From Candidatus Poribacteria bacterium (GTDB lineage: Bacteria; Poribacteria; WGA-4E; PCPOR2b): a stretch of 64,000 bases of DNA. The stretch spans positions 1,472,001-1,536,000 of the forward strand of contig OZ220744.1 in the NCBI GenBank assembly GCA_965116925.1, in the 5' to 3' direction. Positions 17,893 through 36,181 of the stretch are shown one piece after another. A program made the position numbers and the translations under genes. Position 1 is the first letter of the stretch, and each line of letters starts with the position of its first letter. The notes beneath the pieces were generated by a model that did not search any database, was not told the DNA's origin, and was given only the letters and a program-made list of their open reading frames with translations.

Positions 17893-18055
17893 TCGTAGTG
17901 TTAGTAAATAGCTTGACATACTCCCCGCCCTAAAGGAGGGGGATTGTTTTGATTTCCCTGTCCAATAGTTTTGGGAATTGCGCTATCAACAAGGACCGGA
18001 CGGCGAACCGCCTCTTACGTCCTCTCCTTCAAGGGTTGATGCCCCAACCCTATAG
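17893..18055 (-). ncRNA. TnpB omegaRNA (scaffold overlapping the tnpB 3' end plus flanking guide GCTATTTACTAACACTACGA); boundaries approximate
   Basis: Hairpins GGGTTGGGGCATCAACCC and AGGAC..GGCGG-TTCG-CCGTC..GTCCT plus the right-end hairpin ending TCAA; homologous to the orphan copy at 35.8 kb. Confidence 0.75.
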
Positions 18056-19122
18056 ATGTTAATTGCGGCGTTACGGTCACGGTCATGGATTGTGCCACAA
18101 TCGTCGCAACGCCAGTTTCTATCACGCAGATTCAACGTTTCATTGATAGCAGCGCAAACTGAACAGGTCTTACTAGAAGGATACCACTTATGAATGAACA
18201 CGATTTTGACACCCTTTTTAGCTGCAAGGTATTTCAACTTTTTAACGAAATCGGCAAAGCCGAGGTCACTGACTTTGCGTCCCCAAAGTGATTTCATGCC
18301 TTTAAGATTCAAATCCTCAAGCCGTATCTCGTCGTATGCGTCAGTCAGTTGGTGTGCAAGTTTCCAGTGGAAGTCCTCTCGTTGCCGTTCAATCTTACGG
18401 TGCTTGCGTGCCAAGTCAAGCCGTGTGCGTTCCCGATTCTTTGACCGCTTCTTAGTTCGTGAATGTGCTCGACTTGCACGTTTGATAGCGTTGAGACTCC
18501 GCTTAAAAAACTGAGGTGATTCTATATCATGTCCATTATGACCGGTGAGATACCTTTTGAGACCAAAATCAAAGCCTGCGATTTTACCCGTCATGACTCG
18601 ATTGGGGTCAGGTTCTACATAGTCCGTTAAGATACAGATATAGACATCGCCGATACTATCCCGTTTAATCGTGCAACGTTTCGGGTTGCCCAGAATATCA
18701 CGGGACTTGAAATAGCAATAAATACGCTTTCCTATCTTGATACGATTACCCGGTAGAAGTTTCCAACCGGCTTGTAGTAAAGTGAATGACTTATACTTAC
18801 GACGGGGTTTGAAACGCGGTCTTCCCCATTTCTTACCACTAGCACGGGCTTCAAACATTGCTTTGTAGCCTTTGTCAATTCGTGCTACTACGTCTTGAAC
18901 GGCTTGGCTCGGTAATTGATTCCAATGAGCAAACTTGGGCAACCGTTTGAGTTTAGAGATATGGTTAATCAACCGAAACCTGCTGATATATTTACCGTAG
19001 CGGGTATAGTAGCGACGTTGAAGGGCTACGCAATGATTCCATACATGAGCGTGTCCGTCTATGGTCTTGTGCAACTCACGATTGCCGTGATTAGAATACA
19101 TTTTGAACTTGTAGGTTTTCAT
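17986..19122 (-). CDS. tnpB: RNA-guided endonuclease TnpB
   Basis: RuvC residues in GFDFGLK, RLEDL and DRDRNAA all present; CSVC...CDDC zinc finger. Confidence 0.95.
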   Translation of the reverse strand: MKTYKFKMYSNHGNRELHKTIDGHAHVWNHCVALQRRYYTRYGKYISRFRLINHISKLKRLPKFAHWNQLPSQAVQDVVARIDKGYKAMFEARASGKKWGRPRFKPRRKYKSFTLLQAGWKLLPGNRIKIGKRIYCYFKSRDILGNPKRCTIKRDSIGDVYICILTDYVEPDPNRVMTGKIAGFDFGLKRYLTGHNGHDIESPQFFKRSLNAIKRASRAHSRTKKRSKNRERTRLDLARKHRKIERQREDFHWKLAHQLTDAYDEIRLEDLNLKGMKSLWGRKVSDLGFADFVKKLKYLAAKKGVKIVFIHKWYPSSKTCSVCAAINETLNLRDRNWRCDDCGTIHDRDRNAAINIYRVGASTLEGEDVRGGSPSGPC

Positions 19123-19220
19123 TATGGATTGTCTTTCTGTCTTTCATACCTTTTCAACGAGGTGTAGGGGACGTTAGCGAGGGTGCTAACGGTTGAAATC
19201 CCCTACAGAAAGACAAGAAA

Positions 19221-19249
19221 AGTATACCATATTTCACCTGCAAATTCAA
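19221..19249 (-). promoter_or_regulatory. Internal IS promoter for tnpB
   Basis: TTGAAT-N17-TATACT with extended TG; same layout at 36047-36075. Confidence 0.7.
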
Positions 19250-19416
19250 CTTTTTTGATTAACTAACAGGATTTGCCGTTCTGTATCCCCGCCTTGAAAG
19301 ACGAGGTTTTAGAACGGAAGATTTTGATAAAACACCCCATCAGCCAAGTCAACTACTTTTCTGCATCACCTTGCTCACCTCCTACATCGTGAGACGACGC
19401 CAACCGAACTTTCCCG

Positions 19417-35023: not shown

Positions 35024-35749
35024 CTATTCGTATTCTGTGAGTATTGCCTTTAATCGTTCCGGATAGTTCGTCAGAATCCCATCAACGCCGATTTCGATGT
35101 AAGCTCGCATATCTTCAGGGGTATCCGCGTAAAAGACGTGCACGATTCGGCCTGCCGCATGTGCCTTTTGAACAAACTCCCGAGTAGTGATGTCCCGTCC
35201 CGGTTGCATCGTACGCAGGCCCATCTCTACCGATTTTTGGATATATTCCTCTGGAGTGCGGTTTGCACGAAAGATCCGACATTCGATCCGTGAGTCAATC
35301 TCAGCAAAAATACCAACGCTTGCATCGCTGCATGTCAGAATAGAATCCTCTACCATGTGGAAATCGCTCAACGCCTTTGCGACCTTGCGTTCGTAGTGTC
35401 CGTCTGGATTGCCACCTTCTTTGAGGTGGACATTCAGTCCAACTTTCCCTTGCACAAGCTCTAACGCTTCTTCCCATGTCGGCACGCGTTCGCCCCGAAA
35501 CTGTTCACCAAATACTCCTCCAGCGTCGAGAGCTTTGATTTCAGTTAGTGTGAGATCTGAAATCGCGCCTGTGCCGTCTGTCGTTCGATCTACGGTTGGA
35601 TCGTGCATGATGATTAGGTGGTCATCTTTGGTCAAGTAGAGATCGAGCTCGATCTCATCAACGCCAATTTCTAACGCCTTCTGAAAAGCGAGTAATGTAT
35701 TTTCGGGGTAGTTTCCTGACGCGCCTCGATGGGCAACATTAACGACCAT
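35024..35749 (-). CDS. Glycerophosphodiester phosphodiesterase
   Basis: AHRGAS..PENT, ELD, HD.TVDRTT, GVDGILTN. Confidence 0.92.
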   Translation of the reverse strand: MVVNVAHRGASGNYPENTLLAFQKALEIGVDEIELDLYLTKDDHLIIMHDPTVDRTTDGTGAISDLTLTEIKALDAGGVFGEQFRGERVPTWEEALELVQGKVGLNVHLKEGGNPDGHYERKVAKALSDFHMVEDSILTCSDASVGIFAEIDSRIECRIFRANRTPEEYIQKSVEMGLRTMQPGRDITTREFVQKAHAAGRIVHVFYADTPEDMRAYIEIGVDGILTNYPERLKAILTEYE

Positions 35750-35767: not shown

Positions 35768-35925
35768 AACAGTGAAAACTTGCTAAATTGACATACTCCG
35801 CAAACCTAAAGGATTGGGATTCTTATGAGCCCCTTCCCGATAGGAGAGCTAATTGTGGTATCAACAGCACTTGCGAGGCGAACCCCGTCTTACAGTGCCT
35901 ACTCCAATGGACAATGCCCTGCCCA
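35768..35925 (-). ncRNA. Orphan omegaRNA-like scaffold plus guide TTTAGCAAGTTTTCACTGTT; boundaries approximate
   Basis: Colinear with the tnpB omegaRNA, with compensatory stem changes and shared GGGCA loop, GTAAGA, TTCG loop and TGTTGATA. Confidence 0.7.
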
Positions 35926-36181
35926 CTGCCCCAAAGGGCAACTTGGGTGAGGTTTATTAGGGGATTCTAATACCCGTCGGTATACGCCAACTATTGCGGA
36001 TTTTACGCCTGCTAATAGTCAGTAGAATCCCCAATCTCTGAAAACAATTATACTATATTTCACGATTAGATTCAAGGTTGAAACCTTGAGAAAAACTATG
36101 CTAAAGCAATCTGTATAGGCTGCGCCCCAACTGCTCCAAGCATAAATGCTTGAGCTTTAGACCTAAAGGAGGTTTCGGTAA
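35788..36181 (-). mobile_element. Non-autonomous IS200/IS605 derivative (no tnpA or tnpB)
   Basis: Right end GAATCCCAATCCTTTAGGTTTGCGGAGTATGTCAA; left hairpin GCTCAAGCATTTATGCTTGGAGC; left boundary either 36181 (after TTTAT) or 36177 (after TTTAC). Confidence 0.75.
36047..36075 (-). promoter_or_regulatory. Internal promoter of the orphan omegaRNA element
   Basis: TTGAAT-N17-TATAAT; spacer GTGAAATAT shared with 19221-19249. Confidence 0.7.

Follow-up and report, generated by a model that had tools for sequence, protein, structure and literature searches.

The 64,000-nt stretch of DNA analysed here (the window) holds a 390-bp element with IS200/IS605 ends and no gene, which is cleanly inserted in the leader of a glycerophosphodiester phosphodiesterase (GDPD) gene and belongs to a mobile family whose conserved RNA structure is homologous to TnpB omegaRNAs. 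Judging from the sequence comparisons, we consider it likely that the element is a PATE which has a promoter and, in its RNA, a folded 5′ head as well as a complete TnpB scaffold, and that this RNA would be loaded in trans by TnpBs of the family encoded at 17986–19122 and would cut the element's own excision site. The source genome (G000) is a single contig of 6.47 Mb, in which the window occupies C1:1472001–1536000.

The element, its insertion site and its mobility

The original prediction described an element of about 390 bp with IS200/IS605 ends and without a gene. This observation is confirmed at 36177–35788 on the minus strand, where the measured length is 390 bp, the longest open reading frame inside has 41 aa and no transposase gene is found. 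The span first given, 35768–36181, contains a real element, but it also takes in the 20-nt guide and the target tetranucleotide. Along the minus strand the order is left end with its hairpin, promoter-like site, 95-nt head, linker hairpin, omegaRNA core and right end TCAA. The features are as follows.

36178–36181, minus strand: target tetranucleotide (TAM) TTAC, outside the element and abutting its left end
36136–36177, minus strand: left end with the DNA guide AAAG (36158–36155) and the subterminal hairpin (36154–36136), from guide-target covariation
36047–36075, minus strand: putative internal sigma70-type promoter TTGAAT-N17-TATAAT, from a sequence match
35945–36039, minus strand: 5′ RNA head of 95 nt, with an invariant A as predicted +1, from covariation and folding
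35926–35941, minus strand: linker hairpin joining head to omegaRNA core, its tip accepting insertions, from the alignment
35788–35927, minus strand: TnpB omegaRNA core with terminal TCAA, from model R2
35804–35813, minus strand: 10-nt direct repeat, with a second copy at 36161–36170
35768–35787, minus strand: predicted guide in the host flank, sense strand of the GDPD 5′ UTR, by analogy to TnpB omegaRNAs
35024–35749, minus strand: GDPD gene (PF03009)
17913–19326, minus strand: tnpA-less tnpB element of 1414 bp, TAM TTAT (NF040570, 236 bits)

Subterminal palindromes are present at both ends (hairpins 36154–36136 and 35822–35797), and there are no terminal inverted repeats. The GDPD-leader site is empty in 15 of the 17 full-length GDPD orthologues of the genus, with no target duplication, and in 8 of these 15 empty relatives TTAC is fused straight to the guide sequence. 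The two remaining orthologues are a rearranged one and L185, the GDPD leader of G008. In the latter, 13 nt of right-end sequence stand directly before the guide sequence and the target motif is absent; this is likely the scar of an insertion at the same site, with the reservation that the native sequence there is similar. In X4 and X2, a deletion between the 10-nt repeats, with its joint running from 35803 to 36161, has reduced the element to 33 bp. A joint of precise excision did not appear among the contigs, which may miss one. Both loss alleles, collapse and scar, avoid restoring target plus guide, which fits retention, and repeat slippage explains them too.

The family comprises 80 loci that are distinct by their flanks, among loci fetched from one Poribacteria genus; kin are not independent in this or any other of the counts. 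Its 69 measurable members are 298–433 bp long, with a longest open reading frame of 98 aa; TTAT precedes 58 of the 70 members with a called left end, and 77 different guides occur in the family. A sister copy in G000 at C1:4.657 Mb is 80% identical and follows TTAT, and G018 has ten near-identical copies of 430–433 bp with unrelated flanks. The family's RNA is bounded by left and right ends of several types that tnpB elements have too. The family is thus mobile, as judged from its many loci, differing flanks and interchangeable ends. A deletion stub of the neighbouring tnpB family was considered as the origin of the element and rejected, there being no leader match and no significant coding similarity; true tnpB deletion stubs in G000 keep the tnpB leader and coding remnants, unlike the gene-less family.

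Target choice follows the left end. Among 70 left ends of two types, taken from G000 and the fetched loci, the DNA guide tracks the target (AAAA with TTAT in 49 of 53, AAAG with TTAC in 6 of 7, AAAT with TTAA in 8 of 8, and 2 others), so that the expected target is matched in 63 of 68 cases for the three main guides. Such covariation between left-end guide and target is described for ISGst elements (10.1101/2023.03.14.532601). The 5-nt target TTTAT/TTTAC that had been proposed does not hold: the motif has 4 nt, which read TTAC next to the window copy and TTAT next to most family members. Five relatives possess autonomous tnpA-tnpB elements whose left ends are of the same types (L159, L161 and L163–L165); one of them combines TTAC with AAAG, and L161 has a left end nearly identical to that of the window copy. 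In G000 no full-length IS200 TnpA was found (the best match, at 58.4 bits, covers profile positions 6–92 of 126 and is truncated), and therefore the window copy may be immobile now; the other Y1 matches in that genome look REP-associated. G000 also contains eight terminal-only minis of 52–54 bp (C1 positions 367518, 725294, 3131676, 3178763, 3255352, 4153579, 4386242 and 5232946), all of which follow TTAA and have the DNA guide AAAT.

Regarding transcription, the promoter-like pattern is not above chance by itself (3 found, 1.5 ± 1.2 expected); a -10-like hexamer is located 5–9 nt upstream of the head in 66 of 69 family members. The proposal that element and tnpB element retain the same internal promoter stands in part: TTGAAT-N17-TATAAT is present in the element, but the -10 of the tnpB element reads TATACT, not TATAAT. 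In the metatranscriptome run X5, a 205-nt contig spans 35837–36039 with one mismatch and a depth of 7.6, and ends at the invariant A (36039), 8 nt past the -10 box, which is the predicted +1. Positions 36049–36090 are uncovered in this run at ≥93% identity, and a 90-nt contig containing the family's stem 1 has a depth of 200. These contigs, all from one study, strand-less and without a silent-stretch or DNA control, are a weak hint that the element is transcribed from the predicted +1 at 36039.

The element lies 38 nt before the GDPD start codon and below a host promoter-like site (36244–36215), just downstream of which an X4 (RNA) contig starts (36207). Since no terminator-like site was found in the element, read-through from this position may alter GDPD expression, and the RNA or the promoter could be a host-domesticated regulator of the phosphodiesterase gene. 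We regard such a role as very improbable, given that the site is empty in nearly all relatives and collapsed in another strain, that the guide is sense to the GDPD mRNA, that the occupied allele splits the target motif from the guide match and that the partner nuclease is catalytically intact. Gene starts are not enriched either: 11 of 78 elements have one at most 50 nt from their right end, as against 15% of random TTAT sites. The guide had been correctly placed in the phosphodiesterase leader, but the significance attached to this position is not borne out, and the position looks incidental. Domesticated TnpB regulators (TldR-like) combine a nuclease-dead protein with a fixed locus and a conserved guide. 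A regulator of this type was rejected for the intact catalytic triad, the 77 different guides and the locus that is not fixed.

The omegaRNA core and its candidate partner

The core consists of stem 1 (35927–35906), stem 2 (35898–35866), a conserved motif (35864–35851) and the right-end hairpin (35822–35797). It scores 108.5 bits (E 5e-29) on model R2, which was built solely from 13 tnpB-linked 3′ ends, and this score is partly due to the right-end hairpin, which is required by TnpA anyway. The 3′ likeness to the tnpB element that had been noticed at the outset is borne out by the alignment, in which the 3′ 141 nt agree with it in 97 of 144 columns (by blastn, 70% over a length of 135 nt), and all the stems that had been named for their compensatory changes are found where they had been placed. 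The stem-1 flank pairs at long range with the conserved 3′ motif, and 79 of 82 elements preserve this pair (37 with G-C, 37 with C-G, 4 with U-G and 1 with U-A). Covariation in the core exceeds that in shuffled and slid controls, and insertions fall at stem tips.

In metagenomes, the family's stem-1 type and core are located behind the stop codon of an intact tnpB in 27 of 44 matches, the long tnpB matches having 42–48% identity to the window TnpB. The occurrence of the same core behind intact tnpB genes indicates that it is a real omegaRNA. Within the genus, on the other hand, tnpB was found upstream of none of 77 stem-1 matches, so the partner must act in trans. Two gap patterns for tnpB upstream of the core likewise gave no match in 176 and 29 genomes, respectively (the control recovered 10); the gap in the 176-genome pattern is too short for scaffolds behind a stop codon, a case that the 29-genome pattern and the survey of the 77 matches cover. 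The standalone guide RNA of about 270 nt that the original prediction envisaged finds its counterpart in a self-promoted, predicted omegaRNA of about 250 nt plus guide, which is multi-copy and has its pairing preserved.

The window tnpB (19122–17986) encodes 378 aa with an intact RuvC D/E/D triad. G000 has 10 intact TnpBs of this family with the RuvC triad, most of them after TTAT and two after TTAC (an intact TTAC-flanked copy lies at about 3.085 Mb), and the family is present at E<1e-100 in 14 of the 15 head-bearing genomes. In G006, it occurs only in pieces, on a fragmented assembly. G013 has 30 matches to the window TnpB, every one of them a fragment, while at least five largely intact elements (L107, L123 and L283–L285) are kept beside five broken ones and 5 of 6 model matches are broken; this genome leaves the dependence on the partner neither proved nor refuted. 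A remnant of the gene-less family (L082) also lies beside a broken GDPD gene in G013; together with the fragmented TnpBs, this looks like genome-wide IS decay. As a separate observation, a tnpB leader RNA in the window (19122–19215, minus strand) is shared with tnpB copies of four families in G000, upstream of which it recurs. It combines two helices that cross in a pseudoknot-like manner with a closing stem and, ahead of the start codon, a motif present twice; its stems covary by eye across 13 copies, and it has no Rfam match at gathering score.

The element had also been thought to derive from the tnpB element 18 kb away, which the data do not support. A tree of 77 columns unites the 19 tnpB-type cores in a single clade (99/94) that contains none of the family's gene-less cores, the groups being defined by stem 1 and the result hence partly circular; in addition, the head is absent from tnpB elements. 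Stem 1 of the element differs in sequence from that of the partner TnpB family. Cores that form lineages apart from the partner clade, with this circularity, and the persistence of intact-looking copies in G013 would be in keeping with an RNA that worked with another protein (a distant TnpB or a head-binding factor) or as a TnpB-titrating decoy. To this we assign a low probability. Ten headed elements with a full core score 71–112 bits on R2, compared with 22–34 bits for elements of another TnpB family; the G007 copies have a stem 2 that is nearly that of the partner family; and the other TnpB families in G000 possess ends and gene-less derivatives of their own.

Under the explanation that we favour, TnpA of autonomous IS605 elements would move the element in trans, and the internal promoter would yield an RNA of about 270 nt from 36039. 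TnpB would bind the core and probably trim the 5′ part. The TnpB–RNA complex would then cut TTAC plus guide at the empty allele, by analogy with the published retention model (10.1101/2023.03.14.532601), and repair from the occupied copy would restore the element. A TTAY-adjacent 10-nt guide match occurs nowhere else in G000, which makes the empty allele the only evident target.

Related sequences of other kinds were observed as well. L224 and L225 (G000, 4.170 and 4.595 Mb) are degenerate and omegaRNA-like, scoring 38 and 34 bits on R2; they contain expanded inserts, lack a clear left end and are possibly old or domesticated. Outside Poribacteria, L235 is a minimal gene-less element next to dnaK with promoter and core and without a head, and L275, on a viral contig, is gene-less with the same core, its own promoter and a different 5′ region.

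The 95-nt 5′ head

The head is built from a closing stem, a long stem and a three-way junction. It has a GGUAAAAU-type loop in the hairpin 36012–35996 and a GACG tetraloop in the hairpin 35983–35970, and it is followed by RCCA after the closing stem in 53 of 82 elements (9 unparsed); the window copy has ACCC instead, and mismatches in the closing stem. The long 5′ stem of the original prediction is present, but it is one arm of this 95-nt three-way-junction domain, which the tnpB element lacks.

In an alignment of 22 sequences, picked as non-redundant out of about 40, 89.5% of the cells are paired, compared with 35–47% in slid controls, and two-sided change is seen in 18 of 32 pairs, a number equalled in 3 of 500 shuffles. 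Folding of the head is significant (z -3.79), whereas that of the whole RNA is not significant alone (z -1.54). The loops GGU(A/C)AAAU and GACG are nearly invariant while the stems change, and both are retained in the divergent G013 heads that the covariance model missed. The former presumably resembles a T-loop. Conserved G-U pairs, together with insertions that fall only at stem tips, point to an RNA rather than a DNA structure. A subtype without the first loop has spread to at least nine loci (L110–L117 and L278), and so that arm is dispensable for spread.

A copy count with a covariance model had been set beforehand as a check on the prediction. The head model R3 gave 73 matches in 15 of 151 genomes of the phylum, all in one genus (14 of 19 relatives), with the pairing kept; the element is thus more than one decayed copy with unpaired stems. 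Among the 131 other genomes of the phylum there was no match, with 27 candidates scored per genome and a model that misses the divergent G013 heads; there were no viral matches. Of 33 matches to the exact head pattern, 31 are labelled Candidatus Poribacteria and the other two fail the covariance model. Hence, as far as these searches reach, the head appears to be a conserved, undescribed RNA domain that is found only in these elements of one sponge-symbiont genus. As candidates for its identity, known Rfam RNAs (riboswitch, ribozyme or tRNA) were rejected, nothing reaching gathering score and the element giving only matches of E≥1.7. An origin from tnpB coding sequence was likewise rejected, since the likeness of the first loop to the codons for GKIA (13/14) falls short of significance (against shuffles, one of 22 heads reached 1/40 and most about 20/40).

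Heads of other sizes occur on further gene-less scaffolds. L218, L219, L220, L279 and L280 are elements of 270–300 bp with the same core and a small hairpin head, of which L279 and L280 occupy the same site in two species. L019, L120, L121, L125 and L281 have the same core and heads of about 200 nt with extra hairpins, which are unmatched by R3 or Rfam; no larger head variant gave a significant Rfam match. L221, L222 and L223 (G000, 2.585, 4.280 and 5.589 Mb) represent a second family of gene-less elements with promoter and omegaRNA; it belongs to another TnpB family, and its head is a diverged tnpB leader. The presence of small, large or leader-derived heads on other gene-less scaffolds suggests that a folded 5′ end is generally useful.

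These heads also bear on whether the family is a passive relic, moved by TnpA alone and carrying a nonfunctional RNA. Its source would be a tnpB element, extinct or unsampled, that had the head as its leader and the omegaRNA behind its stop codon and then suffered a deletion. Such an origin would agree with the tnpB elements that have the same core behind the stop codon elsewhere, with the diverged tnpB leader retained as head by other gene-less elements of G000, and with the elements that G013 retains without an intact partner. However, no open reading frame lies beside the head in any of the 73 model matches, and the head as a tnpB leader was rejected, the model having no match on tnpB or tnpA-tnpB loci or on sampled outside elements. 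Furthermore, the genus-wide tnpB leader differs in topology, and neutral decay would not produce the two-sided changes that are found throughout head and core in different species. We therefore hold the relic to be quite improbable.

Returning to an RNA that is loaded by TnpB in trans, we most likely see in the head a protective, processing or loading aid. More specifically, and with slightly less than even confidence, we propose that it takes the place of the tnpB mRNA, supplying a protected 5′ end that folds by itself and would keep the RNA stable and loadable. It seems unlikely that the head is a hijacking module that captures TnpB against the mRNA-embedded guide, or that it is cut after RCCA by tRNA-processing enzymes to free the omegaRNA, the family then being an independently evolving TnpB RNA parasite rather than a product of deletion. 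A hijacking module would parallel, in bacteria, the structured heads at the 5′ end of SINE RNAs.

Relation to described systems

Gene-less omegaRNA elements are an already published class, and what is new here is the head and the independence of the family. The standalone demonstration of Altae-Tran 2021 reportedly concerned IscB, with the guide at the 5′ side and with outside transcription needed, whereas the Poribacteria element is of TnpB type and has an internal promoter and a head.

Closest are the omegaRNA-bearing PATEs of ISGst elements, which require TnpB in trans (Meers et al., 10.1101/2023.03.14.532601). In that paper, as compared without its supplements, they are presented as relatives of full elements; the Poribacteria RNA, by contrast, forms its own genus-wide lineage with no cis-linked tnpB, swapped ends and an extra conserved 5′ domain. 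Standalone omegaRNAs of OMEGA systems, according to the account in PMC10691335, are mobilised without effector or transposase, in genomes with effector loci, and function in trans. The Poribacteria element is alike in having neither effector nor transposase and in the effector loci elsewhere in the genome.

In its architecture, the element further recalls the Haloquadratum PATEs, which are described as having subterminal palindromes, no terminal inverted repeats and no target duplication, and as shrinking to a terminal-only form of 52 bp when the core is deleted between repeats (PMC3119063). The 33-bp collapsed allele and the 52–54-bp minis of G000 match this deletion. The Haloquadratum PATEs were described before omegaRNAs were known, and the account given there defines no RNA cargo. 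TnpB is reported to process the 5′ end of its own omegaRNA, the precursor of which is the tnpB mRNA (PMC10278001). Here the precursor would be a non-coding head, and processing by TnpB could likewise free the core from it. In the literature searched, which covered few subscription papers and no supplements, we found no account of a standalone TnpB omegaRNA that has a dedicated 5′ domain and no prior description of these Poribacteria elements.

The family thus presents a gene-less omegaRNA element as a lineage of its own, with 80 loci in one genus, a structurally constrained RNA and an extra domain. Its natural head variants (full, arm-less, small and larger) offer a ready test of guide uptake by TnpB in trans. 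A head that improves loading or stability would be of use in the design of TnpB guides, and a hijacking module would act in nature as an enhancer of the trans loading of guides. If the head is merely a stabiliser, the family would illustrate a class already known, in a clean but modest way.
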